NCBI GenBank assembly: GCA_041667185.1
Contig: JBAYFM010000006.1
Span: 6,591-70,590 of the forward strand
Source of the DNA: Patescibacteria group bacterium
GTDB taxonomy: Bacteria; Patescibacteriota; Patescibacteriia; SG8-24
Length of the DNA stretch: 64,000 nucleotides
Direction: 5' to 3'
The position numbers and the translations under genes are program-made. This document shows, one piece after another, positions 34,391-51,332 of this stretch. The notes beneath the pieces were generated by a model that was given only the letters and a program-made list of their open reading frames with translations, had not been told where the DNA came from and ran no database searches. The first letter of the stretch is position 1, and the number at the start of each line of letters is the position of its first letter.

Positions 34391-34435
34391 TTCATCAAAA
34401 AACCGCCTCGTAGGCGGTTTTTTGACCATTATTCC

Positions 34436-34974: not shown

Positions 34975-35007
34975 CGGGTTCTTCATCAGCTCCGATTTTC
35001 TTCAGCT

Positions 35008-35038
35008 CGCCGCGCTCTCTCAAGGGCGCGGTTTTTTT
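35008..35038 (+). terminator. rho-independent terminator of cassette 1
   Basis: ccgcgctctctcaagggcgcgg plus T7. Homologous terminators follow cassettes 2-4. Confidence 0.6.
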
Positions 35039-35099
35039 CGCAACTATCAGAAAACCTCGGCGTCAGCCGAGGTTGAATAAAAGACGCGAATCCCCCGCA

Positions 35100-35150
35100 G
35101 TTTTAGCGGAGAGGGATCAGAACTCCCACACTCCCACACTCTCCGTCTTC
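35100..35150. repeat. dispersed repeat fragment (copy R6)
   Basis: agcggagagggatcagaactcccacactcccacactctccgtcttc. Confidence 0.5.
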
Positions 35151-35264
35151 ATCAAAAAACCGCCCCGTAGGCGGTTTTTTGACCATTACTTCAGCCTTTG
35201 TTAAGGTGCTTCCCGCAGCTGCAAGCTGCCGCGTTCTTTCATCAATATCATCTGGAGGTGGGGA

Positions 35265-35741
35265 ATGAATTTGAAAACGATCATCGTATCCGTATTCGCG
35301 CTGTGTCTTTTTGCAGGCTGCGCCGCTCCGCAGGCGCATCTGATCGTGCCGGACGGCTGGCAGGCCACCTCGATACACGATCTCGAGTCCGGCTTCAGCC
35401 AGACGTTGGCAAACGAGGGTGAGCAGGCCTACATCTTCGTCAAAATAGCCCCGGATAAAACTTATCCGCGCGTTAAGGAACAGCTGGACTCGGATCTCCG
35501 TTACATCAAAAGTGTTGGCGGCAAGCTGATCGAGTCCCTGGTTGTTGCCGATCAGAGCTTCGCGCGGCTGGCCTTCACGATCGAATTGGCAGATGGCACT
35601 CTGGGCATCGGCAGGATCATCTTGCGCAAGTCGACCAAGGGCAAGCGGACGGTTGCTGTCAGGGGTGTTTGGCCGCTGGATAAGGATGCGGTCATCAGGC
35701 CGGACTTCGAAGCCATTGCCGCTTCAGTCGACTACAAGTAG
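35265..35741 (+). CDS. paralogous small lipoprotein, cassette 2
   Basis: Lipobox LFAGC; 158 aa; C-terminal FEAIAASVDYK. Confidence 0.65.
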   Translation: MNLKTIIVSVFALCLFAGCAAPQAHLIVPDGWQATSIHDLESGFSQTLANEGEQAYIFVKIAPDKTYPRVKEQLDSDLRYIKSVGGKLIESLVVADQSFARLAFTIELADGTLGIGRIILRKSTKGKRTVAVRGVWPLDKDAVIRPDFEAIAASVDYK

Positions 35742-35799
35742 CAGGTTCGCCACCAGCTCCGATTCTCTTCAGTTCACCGCGCTCTCTCATGAGCGCGGT

Positions 35800-35990
35800 T
35801 TTTTTCGCCATTTTGAGGTGAAGAGACGGAGTCAGGGAGAGACGGAGTTGGGGAGATACGAAGATACGGAGTCACGTCGTTCGCGAACGACGTGACGGAG
35901 CCATATCGCTCACAAGCGACGCGACTCCGTCTCTCTGTTACTTCCTGACTCCGTCTCTCCCGCACTCCTGCACTCCCATACTTTCCACTA
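35800..35990. repeat. dispersed composite palindromic repeat element (copy R7)
   Basis: gagacggagtcagggagagacggag ... core palindrome 35874-35893 ... gactccgtctct ... cctgactccgtctctcc. Confidence 0.75.
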
Positions 35991-36073
35991 TTTCGGCCGC
36001 GTGTTAAGGTGGCGGCAGTCGATCGGATGTTCGTCGCACCTTTTTAACAACGCCGCTTCAGAGGAGGTTCAGG

Positions 36074-36568
36074 ATGAAGATCTCGCTGCTAGCGATCCTG
36101 GGTCTGGCCCAGTTGTTTTCTGCTGTCGATTGTTCGCCAGCCGGCGAGCCGAGACTCTGGTCCGAGTCGCCTCAGGGCTGGAAAGTCACGGCCGAACTGG
36201 TCCGCAGCGGTCGGGCGATGTTGGTCCTGAATCCGGAAAAGGCCGGTCTCGAGGCCGGATTCGGCGTGATCTGCGCGCCGGCCGGCAAGATGCCGCCTGA
36301 AGTCAGGTTCCGGTCGCTGGCGAGACAGGCCCGGGAAATGGCCGGCGCCGTGGACATCGAGGCGTACGACGCGGCCAAAAAGTTCTTTGTCCTGTCTTAC
36401 GCCTACGAGTCGGTTTCCGGCGAGGCTTACGTCGCTCGCGTCACCGTGAAGACGGATTCCTCAGGACTCGGCCAGACTCTGGTCATCTCCGGTTATTGGC
36501 CGGAGGCGGTCGATCCGGACCTGGCCCGCGTTTACGCCGACTTCGTCGCCTCGATCGATTTCAAATGA
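36074..36568 (+). CDS. paralogous small secreted protein or lipoprotein, cassette 3 (most diverged)
   Basis: Signal peptide with AVDCS; 164 aa; C-terminal ADFVASIDFK. Confidence 0.55.
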   Translation: MKISLLAILGLAQLFSAVDCSPAGEPRLWSESPQGWKVTAELVRSGRAMLVLNPEKAGLEAGFGVICAPAGKMPPEVRFRSLARQAREMAGAVDIEAYDAAKKFFVLSYAYESVSGEAYVARVTVKTDSSGLGQTLVISGYWPEAVDPDLARVYADFVASIDFK

Positions 36569-36614
36569 GTCCGTTCTGACCTGCTCCCGCGTCTCCTAGA
36601 GGCGCGGTTTTTTT

Positions 36615-36760
36615 CACCACTTTGAGGTGAAGAGACAGAGTCAGGGAGTGATGGAGAGACGGAGAGATGTCGCTCGCGAACGACACGGCCTCGTCTCTCC
36701 CTGACTCCGTCTCTCCTGCACTCCAGTACTCCCGCACTCTCCACCCACCCATCGTTTTGA
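36615..36760. repeat. dispersed repeat element with a degenerate core (copy R8)
   Basis: gagacagagtcagggag...ATGTCGCTCGCGAACGACAC...ctctccctgactccgtctctcctgcactccagtactcc. Confidence 0.7.
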
Positions 36761-36841
36761 CCATTCCCCCGGCCTTTGTTAAGGTGCTCTCCGCAGCCGC
36801 GGGCTGCAGTGTCCTTTCACCCAGATCATCGGAGGTAGAGA

Positions 36842-37312
36842 ATGAGCCTGAAAACGATCGTCGCGTCCGTCTTCGCGCTGTTCCTGTTGGCGGGGTGTGC
36901 GCCCAAGTTCCAAGTCACCGTGCCTGAAGGCTGGAAAGTGGCTAAGGAATTGAACGAAGAGGGCGTGCAAGCGAAACTCCTTGTCAACGCAAAGGAGGAT
37001 ATCGCGATCAAGGTCTTCTGCGTGCCGGCCGAACAAGTGCCGGTCGAGGAAGCTCTGAAGTCGACGGTCGACCTTGTGAACCAGGCTCAGGGCCAGATCG
37101 TCGAACAGGACCTCGCCGCTGACAAGAGCTCGTCCCGGGTCGTTTTTACGGTTACGGTTGATGGCACTGATCTTGCCGGCCGTCAGGTGTTCAAGCTGAG
37201 CAGCTATAAGCACGCCAAGGCGTTGCTTATCTCCAGTGTTTGGTTGGCCGCGCAAGATGCCGAGGCTGCCAAGGCTTTTGAGATCATCGCCGCTTCAGCT
37301 GACTTCAAGTAG
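36842..37312 (+). CDS. paralogous small lipoprotein, cassette 4
   Basis: Lipobox LLAGC; 156 aa; C-terminal FEIIAASADFK. Confidence 0.65.
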   Translation: MSLKTIVASVFALFLLAGCAPKFQVTVPEGWKVAKELNEEGVQAKLLVNAKEDIAIKVFCVPAEQVPVEEALKSTVDLVNQAQGQIVEQDLAADKSSSRVVFTVTVDGTDLAGRQVFKLSSYKHAKALLISSVWLAAQDAEAAKAFEIIAASADFK

Positions 37313-37494: not shown

Positions 37495-37944
37495 GTGACC
37501 ATGGATGAACTCGCCCGACAACTGGATCGTCCCGGGGACAACGCGCATTGTCCCGGCGTTTTCGTGCTGCGTGGCGGCCAAGTGCTCGTCGGTCTGCGGC
37601 ACTATGCCAAGCACGGCATCGCCGCGACCGATCTCTGGACCATCCCCGGCGGCCGCTGCGAAACCGGGGAGACCATCGGCCAGGCGGTCCGGCGCGAAGC
37701 GGCCGAGGAAGCCGGCCTGACCGAACTCGAGCTCACCGACTGGTTGGCCGAGATACCCGGCGCCCGGGCCGGCGACATCGTCCCGCTCTTCATCGGCCGT
37801 TCGTCCCAGCCGCCGCGCCTCATGGAGCCGGAGAAGTTCGCCGAGTGGCGCTGGTGCGATCCCGCCGCCGTGCCGCGGCCGTTCATCAATCCCGAAGCCC
37901 TGATCCTGCTCCAGGCGTGGGTCCGGTCGCATCCCCAAAACTGA
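37495..37944 (+). CDS. Nudix hydrolase
   Basis: Nudix box GGRCETGETIGQAVRREAAEEAGL. Confidence 0.8.
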   Translation: MTMDELARQLDRPGDNAHCPGVFVLRGGQVLVGLRHYAKHGIAATDLWTIPGGRCETGETIGQAVRREAAEEAGLTELELTDWLAEIPGARAGDIVPLFIGRSSQPPRLMEPEKFAEWRWCDPAAVPRPFINPEALILLQAWVRSHPQN

Positions 37945-37949
37945 CCGTT

Positions 37950-40079
37950 ATGCCGCACATCGATTTCGAAAAGGAACTGAACGCTGAACAGCTCGCGGTC
38001 GTGAAGAACGCCGACGGGCCGTGTTTGGTCTTGGCCGGCGCCGGCTCCGGCAAGACGCGGACCATCGTCTATCGCGTGGCCTATCTCGTGGAGCACGGCG
38101 TGGATCCGTCGAGCATCCTCCTGCTCACTTTCACCAACAAGGCCGCCAACGAGATGATGACCCGCATCGGCGAACTCCTCGGGCTCGCGGGCGACGCGCG
38201 GCCGGTCGGTCTCTGGGGCGGCACGTTCCATTCGGTCGCGAACCGGCTGCTCCGCATCTACGGCCGCCAGATCGGCTACGGCCAGAATTTCACCATCCTC
38301 GACGAAGAGGACGCTAAGGCGCTCATCAAGGCTTGTATCAAGGAGCTGAACCTCGACGCCGCCGGCCGCCGTTTTCTGTCGCCGGCCGGGGTCAAGGAGA
38401 TCCTGAGCTACGCGCGCAACTCGACCAAAGGCCTGGAGAAAGCGGTCGAACGGCACGATGCGCGGCTCGTTTCGGACCTCTCCAAGTTCACGGACATCGC
38501 CGCGCTCTACGAAAAGAAGAAACGCGCCGCGAACGCTATGGACTTCGACGACCTGCTCATCCGGCTCTACGAACTTTTGAAACAGGAACCGCGCCTGGCC
38601 GAACTTTTGTCCCAGCAGTTCCGTTACATCCTCGTCGATGAGTATCAGGACACGAATGCGCTCCAGGTGGCGTTCATCAAAGAGCTCGCGGGGCCGAAAC
38701 ACAATCTGCTTGTCGTCGGCGACGACGCCCAGAGCATCTATTCTTTCCGCGCGGCCGACGTGCGGAACATCCTGGATTTCCCGCAGCAGTTCCCGGACGC
38801 CAAGGTCTTCCGGCTGCAGACGAATTACCGCTCGACGCCGGAGATCCTCAGCCTCGCGAACGACATCATCGCCAAGAACGTCAATCAGTTCCCGAAAGAA
38901 TTGACGAGCGTGTCGAAAGGCCTGGAGAAACCAGCGGTCGTGCCGGCAGTCTCCGCTTCGAAGGAGGCGCAGTTCGTGTTCAATAAGATCGAACAACTGC
39001 TCGAATCCGGCGTGCCGGCGCGTGAGATCGCCGTGCTCTTCCGCGCCACGCACCATTCGCAGATGCTGGAGTTCGAACTCATGAAAGCCGCTCTGCCTTA
39101 CGACTACCGCGGCGGCCTGAAATTCTTCGACCGCGCGCACGTGAAGGACACGCTGGCGTTCCTGCGTCTCACGGTCAATTTCAGCGACGAGGCCGCCTGG
39201 CTCAGGGTGCTGGGACTTCAGGAGGGCATCGGCGATGTCTCGGCTGGCAAGATCTTCGAGGCTCTGCGCGCCGCCGGCAGTCTCGCCAAGTCCATTCTCG
39301 CGCCCATCGAGCAGCAGTTCGGCAATCGCGTGGCCCGCGGCTGGAAGGATCTGCGCGACATCCTGGAGGCGCTGCACGCGGCGGGCGGCAAGCCGGCCGA
39401 CCTCATCAAGGCTGTGACGACCTCGACCTACATCGATTATCTTGAAGCCGAATATCCGAATTACCGCGAGCGGCTGGAGGATCTGGACCAGCTCGCCGTG
39501 TTCAGCCGGAATTACGAGAAGGTCGAGGATTTTCTCGCGGACGTCACCTTGGACGACGGCGTCTTCGGCGGCGCGCGCGAACTCAAAGCCGGCGGCGGCC
39601 GGCGCGCCCCGTCGCGCGGCGACCGCATTGTGCTGTCGACCATCCATCAGGCCAAGGGGCTCGAATGGGACGCGGTGTTCATCATCCACCTGAACGACCA
39701 GTCGTTCCCGAACCGCAAGGCCGCGGCTGAACAGGGTGGTCTCGAAGAAGAGCGGCGCTTGTTCTACGTCGCCGTGACGCGGGCGCGCAAGTGGCTGTTC
39801 CTGAGTTATCCCGCGGCTATGGGCGGGCGCGAGGGCGGTTTCGATTACGCGCCGCCGTCGCTGTTCCTCGAAGAGATCGACGTTGCTTGCCTGAAGGACG
39901 GCGCCTGTCTCGCGGGCCGTCGCACCGGCAGCCGCTCGGGTGGCGACGATTGGTCCGATCCGGGATTCGACGATGAGTCGGTCGAAGTTGATCAGACGGG
40001 GGAACTGAAGGAAGTGGGGGAGCGGATGAAGAGCGTGAATGACGACTGGAAGAAAAAAAGCTTTTTAAGGGATGTTTGA
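37950..40079 (+). CDS. ATP-dependent DNA helicase, UvrD/PcrA/Rep family
   Basis: Walker A AGAGSGKTRT, motifs Ia/II (VDEYQDTN), VGDDAQSIYSFRAA, TIHQAKGLEWD. The start was trimmed to MPHIDFEKEL. Confidence 0.88.
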   Translation: MPHIDFEKELNAEQLAVVKNADGPCLVLAGAGSGKTRTIVYRVAYLVEHGVDPSSILLLTFTNKAANEMMTRIGELLGLAGDARPVGLWGGTFHSVANRLLRIYGRQIGYGQNFTILDEEDAKALIKACIKELNLDAAGRRFLSPAGVKEILSYARNSTKGLEKAVERHDARLVSDLSKFTDIAALYEKKKRAANAMDFDDLLIRLYELLKQEPRLAELLSQQFRYILVDEYQDTNALQVAFIKELAGPKHNLLVVGDDAQSIYSFRAADVRNILDFPQQFPDAKVFRLQTNYRSTPEILSLANDIIAKNVNQFPKELTSVSKGLEKPAVVPAVSASKEAQFVFNKIEQLLESGVPAREIAVLFRATHHSQMLEFELMKAALPYDYRGGLKFFDRAHVKDTLAFLRLTVNFSDEAAWLRVLGLQEGIGDVSAGKIFEALRAAGSLAKSILAPIEQQFGNRVARGWKDLRDILEALHAAGGKPADLIKAVTTSTYIDYLEAEYPNYRERLEDLDQLAVFSRNYEKVEDFLADVTLDDGVFGGARELKAGGGRRAPSRGDRIVLSTIHQAKGLEWDAVFIIHLNDQSFPNRKAAAEQGGLEEERRLFYVAVTRARKWLFLSYPAAMGGREGGFDYAPPSLFLEEIDVACLKDGACLAGRRTGSRSGGDDWSDPGFDDESVEVDQTGELKEVGERMKSVNDDWKKKSFLRDV

Positions 40080-40926: not shown

Positions 40927-41568
40927 TCAGGCTGTGAGGACGACCCAGGTGTCGGTTTGGCCGACGCAGTAGCCGAGCGGGATCATGGCTGGCATGAGCC
41001 TGATGAGCGGTGTCTGGATCCGCATTTCTTTCTTCGAACAGGTGATGGCGGCATCGAAGCAGCGGCAGAGGCAGGACCAGATCCCGAGGCTCAGGGATTT
41101 GCCGAGCTGCTGACCGCAGATGGCGTCGAGCAGCTTCGCAATTTCGGATGCGAGTCCTGTCCAGATCAAGTCAGCGAGCTTGCCGTTGTCGTTCACTTGT
41201 CTGATGGTCGGCTCGATGTCATCCAGGGTGCAGTTCGCCCAGCCGTTCACCGAGCGCTGAATGAATTCTGGTGACCCAGAAATCTCAAATGTGTTGCGGA
41301 CGTCGGTGACGACCTGAGTTTGCTGGTCGCGCAACGAGCGAGCCGAAAGACAGATGACATTTTTCACTTCGCGGTTGAGGCTCATGGCGAGGAGATCCCT
41401 GACGCCTTTTTTATTGATCTTCGAGGCAGGAGCCAGATTCAGGCAGCCGATGATCGAGGCTACGAACAGCGGGTCGGCGATTTTGATGACCTCATCCATG
41501 ACCAAGGGGTACTGCGCTTGTTTGATAAGCGTTTGTCTGAGCGCCACGGCTTTGCCTAGATAATTCAT
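40927..41568 (-). CDS. hypothetical cysteine-rich protein in a lower-GC islet
   Basis: Start at MNYLGK with a GGAGG RBS; C-terminal WSCLCRCFDAAITCSKK; local GC (~55%) is clearly below the window average. Confidence 0.45.
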   Translation of the reverse strand: MNYLGKAVALRQTLIKQAQYPLVMDEVIKIADPLFVASIIGCLNLAPASKINKKGVRDLLAMSLNREVKNVICLSARSLRDQQTQVVTDVRNTFEISGSPEFIQRSVNGWANCTLDDIEPTIRQVNDNGKLADLIWTGLASEIAKLLDAICGQQLGKSLSLGIWSCLCRCFDAAITCSKKEMRIQTPLIRLMPAMIPLGYCVGQTDTWVVLTA

Positions 41569-41777
41569 TGCAGCCTCCGTTTTTGCGTTGTTGTAAGGTA
41601 CGAGACGACGGACTCTAGCACAAATAAGCTTGATTGTCAATCCCGGCCGCTGTTGCGGCGAGGCGTGGTTGACCCGGCAGTCAGCGGCGCGATCTTTTGT
41701 TCGCGCGTCGGAACGGAAATATAAAATAAAAAAGAGACCCCTTGCGGAGCCTCTTTTGATCTTCGGGAAAGAGTCGC

Positions 41778-42161: not shown

Positions 42162-43136
42162 ATGACCTTGCTTAAGGGCACTCATCATGACCATATCGAC
42201 GGCTCAAGAGCCGTCAGCGACATCATTGATGATCTTTACCGGCTGGCCGGGAAGGACTTCCCGTTCCCGTCGGTCGAGGCCTGGCTCGCGTTCTTCCAGA
42301 ATCCGCAGGAGGATATCGTGAAGCGGTTCAACACCGTCACGAGCGTCCTGCAGAGCACTGAGGCGCTGGAGCTGCTCGGCTACGCTTACGGCCGACGGCG
42401 CGCCGCCGAAGGGCTGAAGTATGTCGAGGCCAAGTTCGCCCCGCAGTATCACGTGTTTGGCGGACTCGCGATGGCTGCCGTGGCCAAGGCCATGATCAGC
42501 GGTCTGAGGCGCGCGGAATGCGCTTCCTCTATCCGCATCCTGCCGGTGATCTGCATCGGCCGCGAGGCTGATCCGGCGACTGGCGTCAAGATCGCCAGGA
42601 TCGCGCTCGAGTACGACGGCGAAGCCGCGCTCGATCTCGTCTGCGACGAGGCGAACCACCCGCCGGAGAAGCATCTGCCGGCCTTCAAGTTGACGCAGGG
42701 CACGAAGGTCCGGCGCGACTGCCACGCCGGCGAGTGGGTCGCCAAAGAACCGGCCGCGACCTATCGCGAACGTTTGGTCCGGAACATCCGGACCGCGCTC
42801 TACGATCTTCGGGTCGACGGCATCGGCCAGGCGATCCCGTTGGCCGACGAACCAGAACTCATCAAGTTCATCGTCGGGAACGGCATCCGCGTCGCCGGCT
42901 GCCCGCTGTCGAACAAGTATTGCGGGCTACTGAGCGACGTGCGCGAATTACGCATCGGCGAGCTCCTGGATCAGGGCGTCATCTACACCCTGAACGCCGA
43001 CGACGACCTGTTCATGGCTTCTTTGCCCGAGGTCGCCGCAGTCTGCGACGCCGCTTACGGCTTCACACCGGAGCAGCAGCGCCAGCTCGAAGAGAACGTC
43101 TTCCGCGGCGCTTTCGCCGCCGACATCCGGCGCTGA
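42162..43136 (+). CDS. adenosine/adenine deaminase-family amidohydrolase
   Basis: HHDHIDGS (HxHxDG), CHAGE and LNADDDLF metal-ligand motifs typical of the adenosine deaminase superfamily. Confidence 0.7.
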   Translation: MTLLKGTHHDHIDGSRAVSDIIDDLYRLAGKDFPFPSVEAWLAFFQNPQEDIVKRFNTVTSVLQSTEALELLGYAYGRRRAAEGLKYVEAKFAPQYHVFGGLAMAAVAKAMISGLRRAECASSIRILPVICIGREADPATGVKIARIALEYDGEAALDLVCDEANHPPEKHLPAFKLTQGTKVRRDCHAGEWVAKEPAATYRERLVRNIRTALYDLRVDGIGQAIPLADEPELIKFIVGNGIRVAGCPLSNKYCGLLSDVRELRIGELLDQGVIYTLNADDDLFMASLPEVAAVCDAAYGFTPEQQRQLEENVFRGAFAADIRR

Positions 43137-43148
43137 GGACATCTGAAA

Positions 43149-43183
43149 TACCGCCACGCTCTGTGGCGGTATTCTTTTTTTTG
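43149..43183 (+). terminator. bidirectional rho-independent terminator
   Basis: accgccacgctctgtggcggt flanked by an A-run and T8. Confidence 0.6.
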
Positions 43184-43185
43184 GA

Positions 43186-43548
43186 TCAGCGGAAAAGGTT
43201 GAAGCGCTGGACGACGCCCAGGTAGCCGAGCGCCAGGACGAAGAAGGCCAGCAGGCCGGCCGCGATCGCCTTGTGCGGTCCGATCTTGGGAGCCAGCAGC
43301 GCGACGATGAGCATGTAGGGGACCCAGGCGATGATGGAGCCGATGAGGACGAGCCAGGCGTGCTGGGCCACGGCCGAGCCGCCGCGGGAGTCGCCGATGA
43401 AAAAATACGCCACGAGGGTGAAGACCGGGATGAGCGTCGCGAGACCCGACAAGAGCCGGTAGTTGCTCTGTTCGAGCGCGACGATCAGGGTCGTCACCGT
43501 GCCGCCGACGATGAAGTAAATGACCAGATTTTTCAGTTGGTCGGTCAT
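43186..43548 (-). CDS. hypothetical small membrane protein (4 TM)
   Basis: 120 aa, hydrophobic throughout. Confidence 0.5.
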   Translation of the reverse strand: MTDQLKNLVIYFIVGGTVTTLIVALEQSNYRLLSGLATLIPVFTLVAYFFIGDSRGGSAVAQHAWLVLIGSIIAWVPYMLIVALLAPKIGPHKAIAAGLLAFFVLALGYLGVVQRFNLFR

Positions 43549-43654
43549 AAGCTCGAGATCAATGATCGTATTATAGCAAGAGTCTGGTGATCAATGCCGC
43601 CGGGCGCGAGCGATGAAAAAACCGTCCGTTCGGCCGGGCGGTCGGCGCTAGCCG

Positions 43655-44518
43655 TTACGGAACGATGTAGGGCGCTTCGCGTTTGCCGGTCTTCGAGGCG
43701 ACATGCGCGATCACTTTGCGGATCGTCTCTGGCGCCACGCCGTAGCGCTTCGCGATCGTCCGTGCCGCCAGTCGACGGTCCCAGATGCCGGCGAGGATGA
43801 TGTCGATGGTCAGATAGTCGACGCCGAGCTCGCCTTCGTCGGTCTGGTCGGCCCAGAGTTCGGCGGTCGGTTTGCGTTTGAGGACGCTCTCCGGCAGGCC
43901 GAGCTGGGCGGCGAGCGCGTAGATCTGGACCTTGAAAAGATCGAGGAACGGTTCGAGCCCGGAGATGTTGTCACCGCCGATGGTGTAGTAGGCGAGGAGG
44001 TGCTCGGTCCGGTTCTCGGTGCCGATGAGGATGCCGCCGAACAGCGAGCATGTGTGTTCGAGGATCTTCATCCGCTCGCGGGCGGCCATGTTGCCGCGCT
44101 GGAGCGCGGAGTCGCCGCGCTCGCCGAGGACGTCCTTGGCGGCGCGCCAGCTCGCTTCCACCGCTTCGCCGATGTTGACGGTGTGGACGTTCACATCGGG
44201 GATGCCGAGCGCGGCCGCGATTTCGCCGGCGATCGTCACGGATTCGGTCGCGGGTCCGCAGGGCAGCCGGAGCACGATGACGTTCTCGGGTCCGATGGCT
44301 CTGGTCACGAGCGCTGCGGCCACGGCGGAATCGATGCCGCCCGAGAGTCCGATCACAGCTTTCTTGAAGCCGTGGCGCTGGAAATATTTCCGGATGAGTT
44401 TGGTTTTGGCCGCGATGAGCTTGTCGGCTTTTTGGGGCGGGAGCCGCAAATAATCCGGCGCTTTGGCCGGGTCGAGATAGGTGCGGTTGTCCTTGCGGCC
44501 ATGTTTTGTCATAATCAT
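43655..44518 (-). CDS. nadE: NH3-dependent NAD+ synthetase
   Basis: PP-loop IGLSGGIDSAVAAAL; 287 aa. Confidence 0.88.
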   Translation of the reverse strand: MIMTKHGRKDNRTYLDPAKAPDYLRLPPQKADKLIAAKTKLIRKYFQRHGFKKAVIGLSGGIDSAVAAALVTRAIGPENVIVLRLPCGPATESVTIAGEIAAALGIPDVNVHTVNIGEAVEASWRAAKDVLGERGDSALQRGNMAARERMKILEHTCSLFGGILIGTENRTEHLLAYYTIGGDNISGLEPFLDLFKVQIYALAAQLGLPESVLKRKPTAELWADQTDEGELGVDYLTIDIILAGIWDRRLAARTIAKRYGVAPETIRKVIAHVASKTGKREAPYIVP

Positions 44519-44524
44519 AATTTT

Positions 44525-44640
44525 TCCTTCAATTCTTTACTCTCCCAAACTCTGTCACGCCGTTCGAGAGCGACATATCTCCGTCTCTCCCGCACTCCTG
44601 CACTCCAGCACTCCGTCACTTCTTAATCCAATCTTATTTT
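44525..44640. repeat. dispersed repeat element (copy R9, degenerate core ACGCCGTTCGAGAGCGACAT)
   Basis: ...atctccgtctctcccgcactcctgcactccagcactccgtcac... Confidence 0.65.
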
Positions 44641-44792
44641 CAGGCTTTTATCGGAGGTCTGTCAAGCGGATCCGGTGCAAGCCTGTCGTCGGGCGTTCGG
44701 CGGATTTGGCAAATTGACCTTTGAACCGGAAACAAGTAGTTTGATGGCGTCATCTGCCAGAGCAGCAGCGTATCACAGAATGGAGGTCAGTC

Positions 44793-45197
44793 ATGGGACG
44801 TTCATTGAAAGAGAAGATTGCCACATCAGGATCGGGTCTCGTTCGCCGGATCCGCCGCTGGCTCGTTTCACCGCTCGCCGAATTTCAGGAACTGCGGCGC
44901 CAGCGCGCTCTGGTCAAACGCCAGTTGCAATATGCTCTGGCGACCCAGTATCTTGTCGGGCAATTGCGGTACCACGGCATCGAGGTGCTGGAATATGAGC
45001 CCGGCGATCACGGACCCAGAGTTCGGGCCAGAGTGCATCCGGAACAGTCCTGGGTCTACTGCCTCATCTATTCCGCCGTACGGCAGCATTTTCCCGGACT
45101 CACGGAAGCCGAACTCTGCGACGGGGCGGAACCGGGCGAACTCCTGACCGCGGCTCACGGTTTTCGCCGACGCGACCAGCCCGCCAGCAATAATTGA
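44793..45197 (+). CDS. hypothetical protein
   Basis: 134 aa; no motif recognised; flanked by repeat copies R9 and R10. Confidence 0.4.
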   Translation: MGRSLKEKIATSGSGLVRRIRRWLVSPLAEFQELRRQRALVKRQLQYALATQYLVGQLRYHGIEVLEYEPGDHGPRVRARVHPEQSWVYCLIYSAVRQHFPGLTEAELCDGAEPGELLTAAHGFRRRDQPASNN

Positions 45198-45239
45198 ACA
45201 GCTTCGTTTTTTCGATCTTCGGACGGCCTTGGGCCGTCT

Positions 45240-45345
45240 TTTTTTAGAAGTGACGGAGTCAGGAAGTGTAGGAGAGACGGAGTCGTTGAGAGATTCTCCC
45301 GAACTCCGTCTCTCCCTGACTTCGTCTCTCACAAAAAACCCCGCA
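45240..45345. repeat. dispersed repeat element (copy R10)
   Basis: gacggagtcaggaagtgtaggagagacggagtc...gaactccgtctctccctgacttcgtctctc: inverted arms. Confidence 0.7.
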
Positions 45346-45378
45346 GCGGAATGCTGCGGGGCGTAGAGTCGAAAGAAC

Positions 45379-47556
45379 CTACTTGGAGGAGCCGCGAACG
45401 AGCGCAATCAAGTCCTTGAAGGGCTTGCCGCGGTCGATGAGCGATCCCTCGACGGGTTCTTTGGTGTAGAAGGTCGCTTCGGTGGCGATGATGCGCTTGT
45501 CGGACGATTCGATGCGGATGAAGCCCACGCCGGTATCAACGGTCTTGAGCTTGTGATCCTCGAAGGCCGAACCACGCTTGATCGTACCGAGCTCCAGACA
45601 GACGCGCTGCCCGAGGTGGGCATCCCACATCTCGAGATGTTCGCTGACGTGGAAGTTGGCGCCCACGACGAGCTGGCTTTCCGCCGCCATCTCAAGCATC
45701 TCCTGCGGCCGGAGCGAAGTGGTCTTGGCCCGGCTCATGTGCGGATGCATGACGGAGACGCGGAGGCCGGACGGGAGATCGAACTCGCCGTTTTCCGGTT
45801 CCACGATCTTGCCGTTCACGAGTCCCATGAGGTGCGGAACATAGTACCCCTTCGCGTTGAGCAGGTCGGCGATCGCCTCGTAGACGCGCGTGGCGATGAC
45901 ATGTTTCATCACCACGAGCGGCGTGTGGCCGTCCCGGAGCGACCACAGGTCGTGGTTGCCGGGGATGACGACGAATGTCGGCAGCGACTGCTCGCAGATG
46001 CGAGCGATCTGGTCGGCCGCGGCGGTGCCGGAAGAGAGCTTCTCGATAGCCGTGTTGAAGCGGTGGTGGAAGACCTTCAGCAAGACCTTGGCGACGAGTT
46101 CGCCAGCCAGGGTCTCCTGCTCGGTGACGTTCATGGCCGCGTAGATCTCATCGAGGTATTTGTAACCTTCGACGAGGTCGCCGGCGCCGATGAGCATCTG
46201 CGCATCGCGTTCGATGATGGCTTTGGGCAGGGTATCGAGGAAATATCGGATGTCGGTCCGGATCGAGCCGGCGTGCAGACAACCGAACGCCACGATGGAG
46301 TCAGTGTGACACTCCTGAACCAGGGCCGGATAACGCAGATTTTCGCGCATCCAGTAGCTGTCGAAGTCCCAGCGTTTGGACTGGCTGTCGAAGCGCAGTC
46401 CGGGCCAGTTCTTCGGCTGCTTGCCGTAGCGGTTCGCGAGCGGCTTGAGTTCGGCTTCGACCGTCTCGCGGCTGAGCTTGGCAGCATCAGCCAGGAGGCC
46501 GGCGGACATCCGCCCGTGCTCCTTGAGGAGCGTGAGCAGCTTCTGCTGGCGCGGGGTCAGGCTCTTCGGCAACTCGATGTACGAGCGTTCGAGGCGCACG
46601 TAATCCTTGAAGCTGAAGCTCTTGACCACGGGGTCGCTGCGGTCGCGATGGACCGTCATGACGCGGACGCCGATCTGGTTCTCGTTGACCCGCACTTCCT
46701 GCAGACGATGCAGCACCGGGACCGAAACGTACGGCCGGGGCAGTTCGCCTGAAGGCTTGGTGATGGTCGCGCCGAAACAGCCGACGGCCTGGATGTCCGG
46801 GAGCTCGCGGGAGCTCTGGCGGCGCTTGTCTTTGAGGACGCGCTCGATCGGCGTCGAGAAGTAGTCGCCCCGCATCCACACGGATTTTTCGGGAACGAGC
46901 ACTTCGACGACCTTGCCAGCCTGTTTGATGGGTAGGCGGTCGCCGCCGGTCTGGTAGACGCGGATGTCAGTGTTGCGCAGCTCTGCGAGGAGCTGGGCCA
47001 CGGACTCACCGATCTCGCCGTCGTACGCCGGACTCGGGAAGATATACAACTTGATCTTCTCGCCCTTGGCGTTCGTGAAGACGGGGAGGGACTTGGCAAG
47101 GCGTTCGGCCATGCGGTCGGGTTCGAACTCATCGAGATACGACTGGAACCGCGCTGCCGTGGCTTCAAGCATCTCGATGTCCTTCGAATCGGCCGTGACG
47201 GGCTCGGCGTCCTTCTTGGTTCGGCGCTTGCCGGCGGCCTTGTTGGGCTTTCGCGCTGTCGGCTTCTTGGTCGTGGCCGCGGCTTCCGCCTTGGCCTGCG
47301 CCTTCTCGTCTTTCTGGATCCGCTTGATCAGCTTGTTGATCTCGTTGATCCGCCTCTTGAGCTTCAGCGTCTTCTCCCGGACGTACCGGGCGGCGATGAG
47401 ACCGCCAGCGAGGACGACGAAGTGGACGTCTTCGCGGCTGAACGTTTCGGCGGCCTGCTCGAGCAGGGCCTGGCGATAACCGTCGCTCGGAAAATCAATC
47501 CGGGAAATCAGACCGATGCGGGTCGACGAACCACTGCTATTGTCGGTGGGCATCAT
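45379..47556 (-). CDS. large multidomain protein with a winged-HTH and a divergent C-terminal calcineurin-like metallophosphoesterase; function unknown
   Basis: C-terminal motifs GAGDLVEG (GDxxD), VIPGNHD, MHPH, GANFHVSEH. Central RQQKLLTLLKEHGRMSAGLLADAAKLSRETV. A K-rich coiled linker. An N-terminal degenerate phosphoesterase-like segment (RIGLISRIDF...VVLAGGL). The start was trimmed to the ATGATG with an AGGAGG RBS. Confidence 0.6.
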   Translation of the reverse strand: MMPTDNSSGSSTRIGLISRIDFPSDGYRQALLEQAAETFSREDVHFVVLAGGLIAARYVREKTLKLKRRINEINKLIKRIQKDEKAQAKAEAAATTKKPTARKPNKAAGKRRTKKDAEPVTADSKDIEMLEATAARFQSYLDEFEPDRMAERLAKSLPVFTNAKGEKIKLYIFPSPAYDGEIGESVAQLLAELRNTDIRVYQTGGDRLPIKQAGKVVEVLVPEKSVWMRGDYFSTPIERVLKDKRRQSSRELPDIQAVGCFGATITKPSGELPRPYVSVPVLHRLQEVRVNENQIGVRVMTVHRDRSDPVVKSFSFKDYVRLERSYIELPKSLTPRQQKLLTLLKEHGRMSAGLLADAAKLSRETVEAELKPLANRYGKQPKNWPGLRFDSQSKRWDFDSYWMRENLRYPALVQECHTDSIVAFGCLHAGSIRTDIRYFLDTLPKAIIERDAQMLIGAGDLVEGYKYLDEIYAAMNVTEQETLAGELVAKVLLKVFHHRFNTAIEKLSSGTAAADQIARICEQSLPTFVVIPGNHDLWSLRDGHTPLVVMKHVIATRVYEAIADLLNAKGYYVPHLMGLVNGKIVEPENGEFDLPSGLRVSVMHPHMSRAKTTSLRPQEMLEMAAESQLVVGANFHVSEHLEMWDAHLGQRVCLELGTIKRGSAFEDHKLKTVDTGVGFIRIESSDKRIIATEATFYTKEPVEGSLIDRGKPFKDLIALVRGSSK

Positions 47557-47761
47557 GTCGTGCCTCCTTTGGGGTTTGGTTGTCAAAGTACTGCTGGCGC
47601 CGGATGCGCCGCCTCGCGGCCTTCGCGAGGTTCATAGCACCTTAGAAAGAAGGCGAGGTTTTGTCAATCGGATTTTTAGGCCGGGGCATCTTGCCAAAAA
47701 GCCGAAAATAGTGTATGGTCTCATGAACTGATTTTTCGTTGATCAGGCCAAATTTGAGGCT

Positions 47762-48799
47762 ATGAAGACCGTCGAATCGGTAACTGAAGGGCATCCGGAT
47801 AAAGTCTGCGACCAGATCGCTGACGCTATTTTGGATGCGTACCTGACACGCGACCCCGCGAGTCGCGTGGCGGTGGAGGTTTTGGGCACCCACGGGGCGC
47901 TCATCATCGGCGGCGAGGTCACTTCGCGCGCGACCGTCGATCCGGGCCAGATCGCGTCCAAGGTCTACAAGGAGATCGGCTACGACGACGATCTCGAGGT
48001 TTTCGTGAACATTGATGAGCAGTCGCCGGACATCGCCAAGGGCGTGGACGGCGGCGGCGCCGGCGACCAGGGGATCATGTATGGCTACGCCACGGCCGAG
48101 ACCAAAGAATATCTGCCGCCGCCGGTGGTACTCGCACAACGCCTGGCTTGGGGGCTCACGGATCTCCGCAAGAACAATCCGGATTTTTCCTGGCTGCGTC
48201 CGGACGGCAAGACCCAGGTGACGATCGATCAGGGTCGGCCGGTGGCGATCGTCGTGTCCGCGCAGCACGCCGAAGAGATCGATGCCGCCGCGATGCGGCA
48301 GCTGCTGCTCAAGAACCTTATTGCGCCGCTCGTTGATGACGCGCGGCGCACGAGCGTTTACATCAACGCCACGGGTTCCTTCGTGCGCGGCGGTTTCGCC
48401 GCTGACACCGGACTCACCGGGCGCAAGATTATGGTCGACACTTACGGCGGCCTCATCCCGCACGGCGGGGGAGCGTTCTCCGGCAAGGATCCGACGAAGG
48501 TTGACCGGTCGGCCGCCTACATGGCGCGCTTCGCCGCGAAGAACGTCGTGGCGAACGGCGTCGCCAAGAGCTGCCTGATCTCGGTAGCCTACGTCATCGG
48601 CAAGGAAGAGCCGCTCATGCTGCGGGCCGTCTCCGGCGATGGACGCGATCTCAGCGGCTACGTCAACCAGCATTTTGATTTCCGGCCGCGCGCCATCATT
48701 GAACGGCTGAATCTGCGCCGGCCGATCTATCGCCCCACGGCCGCTTACGGGCACTTCGGCCGCGACGAATTCCCCTGGGAACACATCGTCCTCGACTGA
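47762..48799 (+). CDS. metK: S-adenosylmethionine synthetase (short form)
   Basis: GHPDKVCDQIADAILD and GGGAFSGKDPTKVDRSAAY; 345 aa, ~40 aa shorter than typical bacterial MetK. Confidence 0.88.
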   Translation: MKTVESVTEGHPDKVCDQIADAILDAYLTRDPASRVAVEVLGTHGALIIGGEVTSRATVDPGQIASKVYKEIGYDDDLEVFVNIDEQSPDIAKGVDGGGAGDQGIMYGYATAETKEYLPPPVVLAQRLAWGLTDLRKNNPDFSWLRPDGKTQVTIDQGRPVAIVVSAQHAEEIDAAAMRQLLLKNLIAPLVDDARRTSVYINATGSFVRGGFAADTGLTGRKIMVDTYGGLIPHGGGAFSGKDPTKVDRSAAYMARFAAKNVVANGVAKSCLISVAYVIGKEEPLMLRAVSGDGRDLSGYVNQHFDFRPRAIIERLNLRRPIYRPTAAYGHFGRDEFPWEHIVLD

Positions 48800-48950
48800 T
48801 CAGCGCCTCGAATATCAGAACGTCGCCTCCGCGGGCGGCGTTTTGAACTTGACCGGGAATTGCCGGCGGCCCATACTGTGGACTGCCGAAGCCTCCGGGC
48901 TCATTCGGCGATCGCACTTTTGATCATTTCAGGAAGACTAGGAGGTCAAC

Positions 48951-49613
48951 ATGAACTGGCTAACATTGGCCACCGCTGTCTGTTTCGTCTTATCGGTCGG
49001 TTACGCTCTCGGTCGGTTGGCGACTCGCGCCGCCAGCCGTCGCCAACTCGAACGGATCTTCGTCGATCATTATCGGACCTGGTGCCATCTGCTCGGACGT
49101 CTGCATCCGGAGCCGGTCCCGCTGGGTTGGAATTGCCGGGTGGTCCAGGCTTTGCGCAAAGAGGTCGGGGCCAGACTCGATATGACGCTGAAGATGATCC
49201 AGTTCGGCCGGCAGCATTTCCAGGTCGATCGCGAGATCTCGGAGCGGCTGGAGAGATCGTCGGCCAGGAATCTCGAGGCCGCGTCCGCCCTGCTCGACTA
49301 TGGCGAGGGACAGGTCTTGCCGCTGCTTGGCCGCGTCCGCGATTGCGCCTCGTTGCTGCATGGCGAGGTCGAGATGTTGATCAAACTTGCCTCCGGACGT
49401 TACGACCGGCTCGCCGCGCGCGGTTGCCAGGTCGAAGCGGAACGACAAAGGATCACTATGATCCGCAATGCCAGCGCCGCCAGCCGGCTTCAGATCGCCG
49501 GCGCTCCGGTCACCACCATGAAACTGCTGCGGGTCCAGCTAAGGGTCATCCATGATCTGCTGCTCACCGCCGACGTCCTTGAAACCATGCTCCCGCCCGC
49601 AGGAGGGAAGTGA
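48951..49613 (+). CDS. hypothetical membrane-anchored protein
   Basis: N-terminal TM then an Arg/Leu-rich helical region; 220 aa. Confidence 0.45.
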   Translation: MNWLTLATAVCFVLSVGYALGRLATRAASRRQLERIFVDHYRTWCHLLGRLHPEPVPLGWNCRVVQALRKEVGARLDMTLKMIQFGRQHFQVDREISERLERSSARNLEAASALLDYGEGQVLPLLGRVRDCASLLHGEVEMLIKLASGRYDRLAARGCQVEAERQRITMIRNASAASRLQIAGAPVTTMKLLRVQLRVIHDLLLTADVLETMLPPAGGK

Positions 49614-49639
49614 GGCTCAGAGGCTTTCCAGACGGCTCA

Positions 49640-49770
49640 TTCGTTGGGCTGTCTTTTTTTTGTGGATGTGGAGAGTGGGGTGGGAGTGCTGGAGTGCTGG
49701 AGTGCTGGAGTGCTGGAGTGCTGGAGTGCTCTCATACTCCGTCTCTCCCACACTTCCAAACTCCCACACC
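49640..49770. repeat. dispersed repeat element (copy R11) containing a (GGAGTGCT)5 octanucleotide microsatellite
   Basis: gtggagagtggggtgggagtgctggagtgctggagtgctggagtgctggagtgctctcatactccgtctctccc. Confidence 0.75.
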
Positions 49771-49799
49771 TTGACTTTATGGCCATTTTGAGCTAATCT
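49771..49799 (+). promoter_or_regulatory. candidate promoter TTGACT-N17-TAATCT for the 49877 gene
   Basis: Good hexamers with 17-bp spacing immediately 3' of the repeat element. Confidence 0.4.
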
Positions 49800-49876
49800 T
49801 GCTGGTCCGATTTGCGGGCTTCGTACCTTGAACATTCATCGAGCTCAGCTCCTCTCATCAGACTGGAGGTCCGATC

Positions 49877-50539
49877 ATGACCATCATCAGTGCCAGCGCG
49901 GTCGCTATCATCGCTTTTTTGAGCGGCATCCTGTTCCAGAATTCGCGCGCTTTTCGTCAGCGGCTCCGATGCACCAAGGCCAGATTGACGGAGTCCGGAG
50001 CGCAGATCGCCAAGACTCGCCTGCAGTTGGCGTCCGCTGGTCGCGCCCATAATCCGAACGGCCTGATCGCCTGGGCGAGGCAGCATGCCGCGCAACTGCT
50101 CGATCAGAACGAAGGGACCCGTCTCGCTGCTCTGGGGCTCGCCGACAAAGATCGGGACGGCCTGGGCCACGCCGAGGACATGGAACGCGAGGTCTGGCAC
50201 GGCATCTGCGCCGCGCGCAGCATCATGGAGTGCACGGAACGCTATCTGTCCAAGCAGATCTGTCTCGACAATCAGAAGATGAACGGATTTTTGGACGATA
50301 TCGAAGGGTTGCGCCGTCGGCTGGGCGCGCGTCTCGATCGATCGACGGCCGGTCCGAGTATCTACGAGGAGCAGATCCGCCTCGTCCGGCTGGGCGCGCG
50401 CATCGTCGCAGAGCGGGAGACTTTCAAGAGCGATCCGGCCGTCGGCTGGAACCGCATTCAGTCACTGCTCCGCGCCCTCGTTGATGTCGACCAGAGTCTG
50501 GAGTCGAAGCTCGGCGCTTTCAACCTGAACGACCGCTGA
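49877..50539 (+). CDS. hypothetical membrane-anchored protein
   Basis: 220 aa; N-terminal TM; helical region. Confidence 0.45.
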   Translation: MTIISASAVAIIAFLSGILFQNSRAFRQRLRCTKARLTESGAQIAKTRLQLASAGRAHNPNGLIAWARQHAAQLLDQNEGTRLAALGLADKDRDGLGHAEDMEREVWHGICAARSIMECTERYLSKQICLDNQKMNGFLDDIEGLRRRLGARLDRSTAGPSIYEEQIRLVRLGARIVAERETFKSDPAVGWNRIQSLLRALVDVDQSLESKLGAFNLNDR

Positions 50540-50563
50540 CGGAACAGCGGACTTGAGAGACGA

Positions 50564-50598
50564 ACGCTTGTTCGTCTCTTTTTTTTGTGCGCCTGATC
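50564..50598 (+). terminator. rho-independent terminator
   Basis: gagagacgaacgcttgttcgtctct plus T9. Confidence 0.65.
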
Positions 50599-50645
50599 CT
50601 GAAATGGTAAAATGCCCGCGTATTCATTTAATCTCGCTTCTATCT

Positions 50646-51332
50646 ATGGATGCCGCTAATCCCGCCAAGCAGCCGGTTGCCGTTCCTCCGGCCGCTCCGC
50701 CGACGCCGCCCGCACAGTCCAATAACAGACTCTTGATCATCATCATCGCCGTCGTGGTCGGCCTTTCGTTTCTGGGCTGGGTCGGTTCGAAGGTCGCCGG
50801 TTTCGTCGCTCGCAAGGCTCTCGAAGCCGGTACCGGCCTGAAGATCGATGACAAAGGCGGCGTCGTCAGTTTCAAGGGACAGGACGGAGCAGAGATGAAA
50901 TTTGACGCCAACGGGCAGGGCGGCACGTTCACTTATAAGACCGAGACCGGCGAGACCGGCGTCATCGAGACTCAGGTCGGCGGCACGGACAAACTCCTGG
51001 CGCTGCCCGAGTCGTTCCCGTCGGATATCCCGGTCATGTCCGGTTTGAAACTGATCAATAAGTACAGTCTGGGTTCGGGCGAGATGAATACTTTCACGCT
51101 GACCTGGACCGCCGCCGAGAGCCAGAAGAAGATCGCGGATTATTATAAGGAAGCCATGCCGCGGAACGGCTGGACCTTGACGACCGAATTCGCCACGCCT
51201 GATAGCCTGATGATTTCTTTCGAAAAGATGTTCGACGCCAAGACCGAGACCAAGCATTCGGCGACCTTCAGTTTCACGTCGAAAGAGGACGGCAGCCTCG
51301 AAGTTTCGCTGGTGGCTCAGATTTACAAATAG
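50646..51332 (+). CDS. hypothetical membrane-anchored protein (Pro/Ala-rich N-terminus, TM, beta-rich domain)
   Basis: Start trimmed to MDAANPAKQ; a TM helix LLIIIIAVVVGLSFLGWVG. Confidence 0.5.
   Translation: MDAANPAKQPVAVPPAAPPTPPAQSNNRLLIIIIAVVVGLSFLGWVGSKVAGFVARKALEAGTGLKIDDKGGVVSFKGQDGAEMKFDANGQGGTFTYKTETGETGVIETQVGGTDKLLALPESFPSDIPVMSGLKLINKYSLGSGEMNTFTLTWTAAESQKKIADYYKEAMPRNGWTLTTEFATPDSLMISFEKMFDAKTETKHSATFSFTSKEDGSLEVSLVAQIYK

Follow-up and report, generated by a model that had tools for sequence, protein, structure and literature searches.

The window analysed here, a stretch of 64,000 nucleotides from a Patescibacteria group bacterium (assembly GCA_041667185.1, contig JBAYFM010000006.1, positions 6,591 to 70,590), encodes on its reverse strand a protein of 725 residues that carries two metallophosphoesterase (MPE) folds in a single chain. 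The first fold lacks metal ligands and is interrupted by a basic helical hairpin, a winged helix-turn-helix (wHTH) follows, and the second fold holds a predicted dimetal site with two altered ligands. We tentatively favour the reading that the protein is a single-chain nucleic-acid phosphodiesterase, most likely a nuclease that processes DNA ends or structures. An original prediction, made from the DNA alone, had offered a DNA repair or processing enzyme as one of three functions for this gene, and it is the one of the three that our evidence supports best. While the MPE superfamily itself is known, the domain organisation, in which a pseudo-MPE with a coiled-coil insertion, a wHTH and a Cys-type MPE are joined, is new.

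A predicted catalytic half with unusual metal ligands

A word-indexed search returned 57 relatives of the protein, nearly all of them full length and 34-100% identical to it. Across this family the C-terminal domain keeps the MPE motif order, with motifs II, III and IV canonical, motif I in the form CxH and motif V in the form N[FWY]H (Table 1). Two ligands thus depart from the canonical set, since motif I has Cys instead of Asp and motif V has Asn instead of the first His of GHxH. CxH, GD, GNH, H and N[FWY]H are retained even by those full-length members that lie farthest away. After motif IV comes the loop HPHMxRAKTTSxRPQE, one of the best-conserved parts of the protein, which contributes three further conserved residues that are basic. 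A divergent C-terminal MPE with Cys in place of the motif-I Asp had been proposed at the outset, and it is borne out by the presence of the quoted motifs and by the invariance of the key residues in 56 homologues. Two details need amendment: motif II, described as GDxxD, is present in the form GDxxE, and the stretch 'GANFHVSEH', taken as GHxH-like, does hold motif V, its actual form being N-F-H rather than the GHxH spread.

The Cys had also been called reminiscent of Mre11/SbcD, which is mistaken because motif I of Mre11/SbcD has Asp. A motif-I Cys is instead the hallmark of Dbr1, and has been described as setting that enzyme apart from virtually every other MPE (PMC4176325). Dbr1 shows that an MPE site with a Cys can be catalytically competent (PMC4176325; PMC9202583), and the latter source reports that the enzyme uses combinations of Mn, Zn and Fe. 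Because of this precedent (PMC4176325; PMC9202583), the motif-I Cys of the family protein suggests a site compatible with catalysis and, by analogy, a softer metal in site A, which would be formed by Cys426, His428, the bridging Asp460 and His636. Asn634 and Asn534 suggest in the same way a harder metal in site B, which would be formed by Asp460, Asn534, His604 and Asn634.

It is conceivable, and in our view very unlikely, that both MPE folds are pseudo-enzymes and that the protein is a non-catalytic scaffold organising a replication or repair complex on DNA, as precedents such as Vps29 and the B-subunits of polymerases alpha, delta and epsilon might suggest. Vps29 and the polymerase B-subunits are indeed among the fold matches described below, two canonical ligands of the C-terminal domain are replaced, and the N-terminal domain is clearly a pseudo-enzyme. 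However, the remaining ligands and the catalytic His535 are invariant across a family that has diverged to about 35% identity and beyond, and since such invariance is typical of active enzymes, a scaffold is disfavoured. A Gln serves as metal ligand in 5'-nucleotidase. Cys and Asn are likewise competent metal ligands, as Dbr1 illustrates for the former (PMC4176325).

Structure and profile searches place the protein within the superfamily. An AlphaFold2 (AF2) model, built with a 56-sequence alignment, reached a predicted local distance difference test score (pLDDT) of 90.9 and a predicted template modelling score (pTM) of 0.88, and shows three modules: an N-terminal MPE fold (residues 10-320), a wHTH (about 328-400) and a C-terminal MPE (411-700). 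A pTM of this size would imply confident mutual packing of the two MPE folds in the model. In Foldseek, the full model matched the archaeal proofreading exonuclease DP1 of polymerase D (PolD) at an E value of 7e-6, with a root-mean-square deviation of about 6-7 Å over about 335 columns, a match that may come from either MPE domain. Mre11 (E 1e-5) came next, then Vps29 and YydB, and the top matches in the PDB were 9f29_A, 8ppt_A and 5ihe_A (DP1), with E about 1e-5. The Mre11 match (4nzv_B) probably reflects the N-terminal domain, as its alignment length is near that obtained when this domain is searched alone. Among the matches listed, full and N-domain models found only MPE-fold structures at E<=1e-3. 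A viral structure library returned phage MPEs annotated as SbcD, 'DNA polymerase II small subunit' or calcineurin-like, down to E 5e-10, none of them covering the whole architecture. Structure prediction and Foldseek were among the checks proposed with the original prediction, and by them both halves match the MPE fold, a beta-sandwich of two layers with helices on its flanks.

When 56 family members were scanned individually against profile libraries, phrog_7339 'DNA repair exonuclease' matched 37 of them (best E 1e-5), phrog_284 'exonuclease' six, TIGR03729 'putative phosphoesterase' five and the SbcD model TIGR00619 seven at E<=1 (best 0.0096). Each of these matches is weak, and since they agree with one another, we place the catalytic domain nearest the SbcD/Mre11/DP1 nuclease branch.

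A conserved, ligand-free N-terminal half

The strands and helices of the N-terminal domain follow the order of the MPE fold, interrupted after beta2 by the helical hairpin. Modelled alone, the domain reached a pLDDT of 83 and gave 106 Foldseek matches at E <= 1e-3, of which those listed are MPE-fold structures only. The top match is Mre11 of T. maritima (4nzv_B, E 7.8e-8); LpxH, MJ0936, PolD DP1, E. coli SbcD, Vps29 and polymerase B-subunits also appear, and the highest target-normalised template modelling score (TM-score), 0.72, is to MJ0936 (1s3l_A). Across the family alignment no His or Cys of this domain is conserved and the metal ligands of the MPE motifs are absent; it is therefore unable to hold a canonical dimetal site.

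Instead, invariant or near-invariant residues lie in the model at the C-terminal strand ends, the usual place of the MPE motifs, and part 2 of the domain contains VWMRGDY(F/Y)STPxERVxKD, the segment that varies least in the whole protein. Since these pocket residues are conserved at least as well as the catalytic domain (column identity 0.60-0.63 for the N-terminal versus 0.56 for the catalytic domain), the N-terminal domain is, as judged from the alignment, a repurposed pocket rather than a decayed one. The original prediction had seen in the first 90 or so residues a decayed copy of the first two phosphoesterase motifs. Its phosphoesterase-like character stands; its size and its decay do not, as the region is part of a whole, conserved MPE domain of 310 residues that is split by the hairpin. 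An alignment of the N-domain and C-domain profiles with hhalign found no similarity (probability 0.5%), and the two MPE halves are related at fold level only.

The K-rich stretch once taken for a coiled linker between domains proved in the AF2 model to be a helical hairpin inside the N-terminal domain. Its tip is K-rich and disordered (residues 97-123, window 47188-47268, pLDDT<50), and across the family the hairpin is 17-134 residues long, with a column identity of 0.20 and a median charge of +7. SMC, Rad50 and SbcC models weakly match it in some members, matches that are probably compositional. The whole protein is basic, with a median isoelectric point of 9.1 and a net charge of +14 that resides mostly in the hairpin (+7) and the wHTH (+4.7).

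The winged helix and a possible regulatory role

The wHTH proposed ahead of the C-terminal domain is supported by the AF2 fold, a three-helix bundle with a beta-wing, and by Pfam matches that stay under the cut-offs in the window protein. In the window protein HTH_11, AsnC, HTH_24, DeoR and MarR match at E 0.005-0.04, and in another family member HTH_24 reaches E 7.8e-7. When the PDB is searched with the family profile, wHTH chains of the Zalpha-like and MarR kinds match at E 4e-4 to 0.07. The segment is basic (median charge +4.7), as already noted, and with a column identity of 0.46 it belongs to the less conserved parts of the protein.

Such a domain raises the possibility of a one-component regulator, in which the N-terminal domain would recognise a second messenger or another small molecule that is phosphorylated, an operator would be bound by the wHTH, and the C-terminal domain would degrade the signal. 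MPEs include hydrolases of cyclic nucleoside monophosphates (cNMP) and of dinucleoside tetraphosphates (Np4N). The families nearest to the wHTH, MarR, AsnC, DeoR, HTH_11 and ArsR, are transcription-factor families, and all of the 57 relatives are 'hypothetical' or unnamed except for a single NCBI record called 'helix-turn-helix transcriptional regulator'. The N-terminal pocket is, moreover, extremely conserved and as rich in Arg, Ser, Thr and Asp as phosphate-binding sites are, and a conserved structured leader and a promoter-like site precede the gene. We nevertheless consider a regulator rather unlikely. The listed profile votes favour SbcD and 'DNA repair exonuclease' over cNMP phosphodiesterases or ApaH; indeed, no protein-phosphatase, ApaH or cNMP-phosphodiesterase model is among the families listed for the 56 members. 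No conserved operator-like palindrome was found upstream of the family genes and no LexA or Cheo box at the 27 loci searched, so that SOS control is unsupported as well. The modest conservation of the HTH segment and the lack of a conserved adjacent target gene also speak against a regulator.

A lineage-specific family

An exhaustive hidden Markov model search of 1.84 billion representative proteins found 213 (clusters at 50% identity) at E <= 1e-3, 152 of them at E <= 1e-30, nearly all with the same full-length architecture. A few members carry N-terminal extensions of 100-240 residues in which HTH-like segments can be seen by eye and Pfam domains were not found. By this profile search the family is closed, as it stays clear of ordinary MPEs. 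The named sources of the 57 relatives are Uhrbacteria, Yanofskybacteria, Kaiserbacteria, Paceibacterota, Parcubacteria and 'Patescibacteria group', and a scan of GTDB with one genome per species, for which the query was built from 12 family sequences, found 23 loci, most labelled as Patescibacteria lineages. The others, with labels such as Vicinamibacterales, Acutalibacteraceae or Gammaproteobacteria and with one unlabelled 'bacterium' metagenome-assembled genome among them, belong to metagenome-bin contigs, and we suspect mis-binning. Thus almost all named sources are Patescibacteria, mainly Parcubacteria-type groups, and the family appears specific to this lineage. The MetK protein of the window is 100% identical to one from a 'Patescibacteria group bacterium' metagenome-assembled genome, with the nearest others in Uhrbacteria and Parcubacteria.

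No curated family fits the whole protein in these sequence comparisons, all of which stay under threshold. Pfam gives HTH_11 at residues 336-373 (E 0.005) and Metallophos at residues 421-555 (E 0.0055), the latter model (PF00149) missing its gathering score with 17.6 bits against 21.5 and reaching E<0.01 in only 8 of 56 members. The NCBIfam model TIGR00619 (sbcd) scores 12.4 bits against a cut-off of 77.65, the PHROGs 'DNA repair exonuclease' reaches E 0.0014 with the window protein, and the best PADLOC match is MkoC (E 0.04), in the coiled-coil region. A search of PDB sequences with the single sequence gave no match, and with the family profile only small wHTH chains (Zalpha-type, MarR, TFE) at E >= 4e-4. 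No curated model or solved structure searched matches the three-module architecture, the conserved ligand-free MPE fold with its insertion or the CxH/NxH site. The combination had been described as lying outside known families, and so it does: profile searches assign the whole protein neither to SbcD/Mre11 nor to another characterised family. A literature search for Patescibacteria metallophosphoesterases, or for Mre11 with a winged helix in the Candidate Phyla Radiation, found nothing relevant.

Genomic surroundings

The context of family genes was compared across 65 loci, which form 37 groups at 85% identity. No partner is conserved, as the most frequent neighbour is found in only 9 of the 37 groups: YceG and rplJ in nine each, rplL and rpsB/tsf in eight, metK and PCMT in six. 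Conserved synteny is seen with housekeeping genes, among them those for ribosomal proteins, EF-Ts, MetK, YceG, ATP synthase and FtsZ; one distant member has IMPDH on one side and PCMT on the other, with ftsA, ftsZ and the operon for ATP synthase close by. A UvrD/PcrA helicase is encoded 0.07-5.3 kb away in 6 of the 37 groups, in at least three arrangements, LexA is found near the family gene in one locus (L005), and no second MPE is encoded near family members in the 65 loci. The genes around it in the window encode adenosine deaminase, a GlpM-like membrane protein, NAD synthase, an unknown protein from a 134-residue open reading frame (ORF) and MetK, which has the MetK Pfam domains. The family gene thus stands alone among core genes, and its link to UvrD is modest at most.

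In 8 of the 37 groups the family gene faces a small MerR/HTH_17 gene in convergent orientation, which mostly begins its stretch 26-73 nt on the downstream side. This excisionase-like gene is found in a Yanofskybacteria-like clade (L002, at 12132-12389; L010, L012, L038, L039, L042, L045 and L065), and it is followed by a very large protein without Pfam domains, of up to 2342 residues (L039). The UvrD/PcrA-type helicase of the window (37548-40079, forward strand; 843 residues), which is one of those counted near family genes, has an extra N-terminal extension of about 140 residues before the helicase core.

Two further explanations bear on these surroundings. A single-protein anti-phage defence or restriction factor, the idea of the original prediction that fared worst, could be imagined from a nuclease-like and a DNA-binding domain in one stand-alone gene that is flanked by repeat elements in the window. 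But the neighbours are housekeeping genes in conserved synteny, no defence or mobile-element signal surrounds the family genes at the 37 distinct loci, no relatives were found in phage, plasmid or IMG/VR collections, and the PADLOC match is not significant. The flanking repeat is a genome-wide intergenic element and not the border of a mobile element. A defence role therefore strikes us as highly improbable.

The second is an enzyme directed at RNA, either a Dbr1-like 2'-5' phosphodiesterase that debranches nucleic acids, such as the lariats of group II introns, or an enzyme of RNA end-healing or decapping. The invariant Cys-x-His motif I is otherwise a Dbr1 signature (PMC4176325), the wHTH profile matches Zalpha-type (Z-DNA/Z-RNA) domains at E 0.003, and ribosomal-protein and translation-factor genes (rplJ/rplL, rpsB/tsf, rpmG) are frequent neighbours. 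Yet translation-gene neighbours are unsurprising in genomes that are mostly housekeeping, motif V departs from the GHxH of Dbr1, the top 50 fold matches include no Dbr1 chain, and the family protein has neither a DBR1 C-terminal domain nor a lariat-recognition loop, no Pfam DBR1 model (PF05011) matching at E<=10. An RNA-directed enzyme is thus unlikely in our estimate.

A tentative mechanism

As for a DNA-processing nuclease, the analysis shows how the protein is predicted to fold, which motifs never vary, where the charge sits, how far the family extends and what surrounds its genes; catalytic activity, the identity of the metals, an Mre11-dimer-like arrangement, a DNA substrate and a role in repair or recombination are inferred. 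The two-metal centre of the C-terminal MPE would cleave a phosphodiester in DNA or, less likely, in RNA, with His535 as helper of the transition state or leaving group. The exchanges of Asp for Cys and of His for Asn would give a mixed pair of soft and hard metals (Fe/Zn with Mn/Mg) in place of the usual Mn2. The substrate would be gripped by two basic parts, the wHTH and the hairpin, together with the Arg/Ser/Thr/Asp pocket that is conserved in the metal-free N-terminal domain. This domain could take the place that the second protomer has in a dimer of the Mre11 type, or else act as a sensor of phosphate or a ligand. The outcome would be the processing of ends or structures in repair or recombination.

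Several observations weigh against this proposal. The nuclease likenesses are weak, with curated models under threshold and TM-scores of 0.3-0.4, and the family profile matches no MPE chain among PDB sequences. The wHTH is as close to the domains of transcription factors and of the Zalpha type as to any others, the two non-canonical metal ligands mean that the chemistry may differ, and the UvrD linkage is in part inherited synteny. Finally, an SbcC/Rad50-like partner, sought as ORFs of >=450 residues with an N-terminal Walker A, is absent from the 65 loci.

The genomes of Patescibacteria are very small, and for a large part of their conserved genes no function has been assigned. The family gene, some 700 codons long, strongly constrained, restricted to a lineage and set among core genes, is a candidate enzyme among these. 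If it is a nuclease, reduced genomes might have compressed a machine like the Mre11 dimer into one polypeptide, and its metal centre would be a second, independent Cys-containing MPE site after that of Dbr1. The highly conserved ligand-free domain is in any event a useful case of pseudo-enzyme repurposing. A bolder extension, which we regard as a long shot, is that the family is the Patescibacteria-specific single-chain counterpart of the Mre11 dimer, which might turn its Dbr1-type site on an unusual linkage (for example the 2'-5' branches in lariats of group II introns, or DNA ends blocked by protein or by structure) or substitute in these reduced genomes for end processing of the SbcCD or AddAB type, with the N-terminal domain as a new module for the recognition of phosphate or nucleic acid.

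Gene structure and expression signals

Table 1. Coordinates of the gene, its domains and motifs, and associated elements in the window.
Feature	Coordinates	Strand	Description and evidence
Complete coding sequence	45379..47556	-	725 aa + stop; ORF list, 57 homologues at 34-100% identity, AF2 pLDDT 90.9
N-terminal pseudo-MPE, part 1	47392..47529	-	aa 10-55, beta1-alpha1-beta2; conserved S18, R19, D21, R28, G51, G52 at motif I/II positions
Basic antiparallel helical hairpin	47131..47391	-	aa 56-142, inserted after beta2; AF2 helices 56-96 and 124-142
N-terminal pseudo-MPE, part 2	46597..47130	-	aa 143-320; S175, D179, R229, D231, S234, T235, G259, E292, N293, Q294 invariant or near-invariant
Winged helix-turn-helix	46357..46575	-	aa ~328-400; three helices 335-373, beta-wing 387-398, near-invariant W384-P-G
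C-terminal MPE, probably active	45457..46326	-	aa 411-700; helical insertions; Pfam Metallophos E 0.0055, profiles, Foldseek
Motif I, C426-L-H428	46273..46281	-	Cys for canonical Asp; invariant 56/56, kept in distant members
Motif II, G459-D460 (GDxxE)	46177..46182	-	Invariant
Motif III, G533-N534-H535-D536	45949..45960	-	GNH invariant
Motif IV, H604	45745..45747	-	Invariant; opens conserved HPHMxRAKTTSxRPQE loop
Motif V, N634-F635-H636	45649..45657	-	Asn for first His of GHxH; invariant; variants N-[FWY]-H
Promoter-like region and leader	47557..47667	-	TTGACA (47667-47662), 17 nt, TAAGGT (47644-47639), ~80-nt leader; by sequence
Leader elements		-	Hairpins 47630-47612 and 47610-47596; CTTTGACAA (47588-47580); Shine-Dalgarno AAGGAGG (47569-47563)
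Intrinsic-terminator-like hairpin and T-run	45338..45362	-	GC-rich; 16 nt after stop codon
8-nt-periodic repeat copies	1157-1239, 17314-17553, 28325-28415, 34322-34396, 35812-35981, 36629-36745, 44553-44627, 45243-45352, 49675-49769

The gene belongs to an ORF at 45379..47586 (reverse strand) in the ORF list of the window, for which we chose the ATG at 47556 as start; the Shine-Dalgarno sequence (SD) lies 7 nt before it, and a database protein 100% identical to the window protein (P0001) starts one codon downstream. Because it has a promoter-like site, an SD and a terminator-like hairpin of its own, the gene appears monocistronic. It had indeed been described as monocistronic and bracketed by a repeat element and the metK promoter region, in keeping with its position between the metK spacer and the 8-nt-periodic repeat at 45243-45352. 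The promoter-like hexamers lie within a spacer of 205 bp that is common to this gene and the divergent metK (47762-48799).

The promoter and leader are putative features, and their layout recurs in the related loci L027, L031 and L032, with the hexamers present also in L006 and L015. In the closest relatives the leader consists of two hairpins, a CTTTGAMAA element about 15-25 nt before the ATG and then the SD. Hairpin 1 shows three compensatory pairs (alifold, four leaders), and the CTTT of CTTTGAMAA could pair with the AAAG of the SD. CTTTGAMAA stands upstream in 19 of 23 family loci versus 6.5% of 230 other genes, an enrichment that is circular as the position weight matrix was trained on the same sites. 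A CTTTGAMAA-like motif also precedes other genes of the window (18968, 36042, 40283). The idea of a specific operator was dropped, as the motif is found before these other genes too, and its role is probably a general one in leaders or translation. An Rfam scan of window positions 43000-50500 gave a single chance-level match.

Other features of the window

The repeat that adjoins the gene is a dispersed intergenic element of 8-nt-periodic units (CTCCGTCT, CTCCCTGA, CTCCAGCA and similar), present in both orientations; the copy at 45243-45352 lies between convergent terminators 3' of the phosphoesterase gene. A palindrome, CACGTCGTTCGCGAACGACGTG, often adjoins the repeat (324-353, 1157-1186, 17524-17553, 35870-35899, 44553-44582). 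The element also occurs in the repeated intergenic segments of a tandem array at 34507-37312, which encodes four paralogous small lipoproteins of about 155-164 residues, 18-37% identical to the first copy. All four have a signal peptide and a G/D-C that resembles a lipobox, in two of them as LLAGC. A direct repeat of 300 nt (1-300 / 763-1062; 94% identity, spacing 762 nt) occupies the left end of the window.

Near the phosphoesterase gene, ORFs without a Pfam match are found at 44793-45197, 48951-49613, 49877-50539 and 50553-51332 on the forward strand and at 40927-41640 on the reverse strand. The first of these, of 134 residues, has its own terminator-like hairpin at 45221-45239. The two 220-residue ORFs downstream of metK have no detectable relation to each other and are not taken for paralogues. 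ARAGORN found no tRNA gene in the 64-kb window. Between 40 and 52 kb the GC content is about 51-66%, a high value beside the AT-rich sequences that lie upstream at many of the related patescibacterial loci.

Comparison with known systems

Among the fold relatives, MJ0936 gives the highest target-normalised TM-score to the N-terminal domain, but Vps29, MJ0936, YfcE and LpxH are, unlike the family protein, single-domain proteins. LpxH, an enzyme whose substrate is a lipid A precursor, also has helices inserted in its MPE fold, a broad likeness to the family protein.

PolD DP1 is the top fold match of the full model and resembles the family protein in combining an Mre11-like phosphodiesterase nuclease with an accessory domain that binds nucleic acid or protein, and the B-subunits of polymerases alpha, delta and epsilon are a precedent for ligand-less MPE folds that serve as scaffolds. 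However, the family protein has tandem MPE folds and lacks an oligonucleotide/oligosaccharide-binding fold, the order in the AF2 model being wHTH and then MPE. TM-scores are only about 0.35, and the hosts are bacterial, mainly Patescibacteria, and presumably without DP2.

With Dbr1 the protein shares the invariant Cys in place of the motif-I Asp (PMC4176325), and by analogy a mixed Fe/Zn/Mn metal site is likely (PMC9202583). In contrast to Dbr1 it is bacterial, has another architecture and an altered motif V, and is without the DBR1 C-terminal domain and lariat-recognition loop.

Mre11/SbcD differs in having DxH where the family has CxH in motif I and GHxH where it has NxH in motif V, and neither a wHTH between domains nor a fold without metal ligands, as one of the two in the family protein is, belongs to that system. 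The coiled coil of the family is a short hairpin inside the nuclease fold, whereas that of Mre11/SbcD belongs to a separate ATP-binding cassette ATPase; no SbcC/Rad50 gene lies near the family loci, and TIGR00619 stays at 12.4 bits versus 77.65. The likenesses are that both halves have an MPE fold, that each system includes a coiled-coil arm, that Mre11 is the best fold match of the N-terminal domain, and that there are SbcD and 'DNA repair exonuclease' profiles that recur, weakly, on the C-terminal domain. Mre11/SbcD is an obligate dimer, and it is appealing to propose that the two MPE folds of the family protein would work together in one chain as the two protomers of the Mre11 homodimer do.

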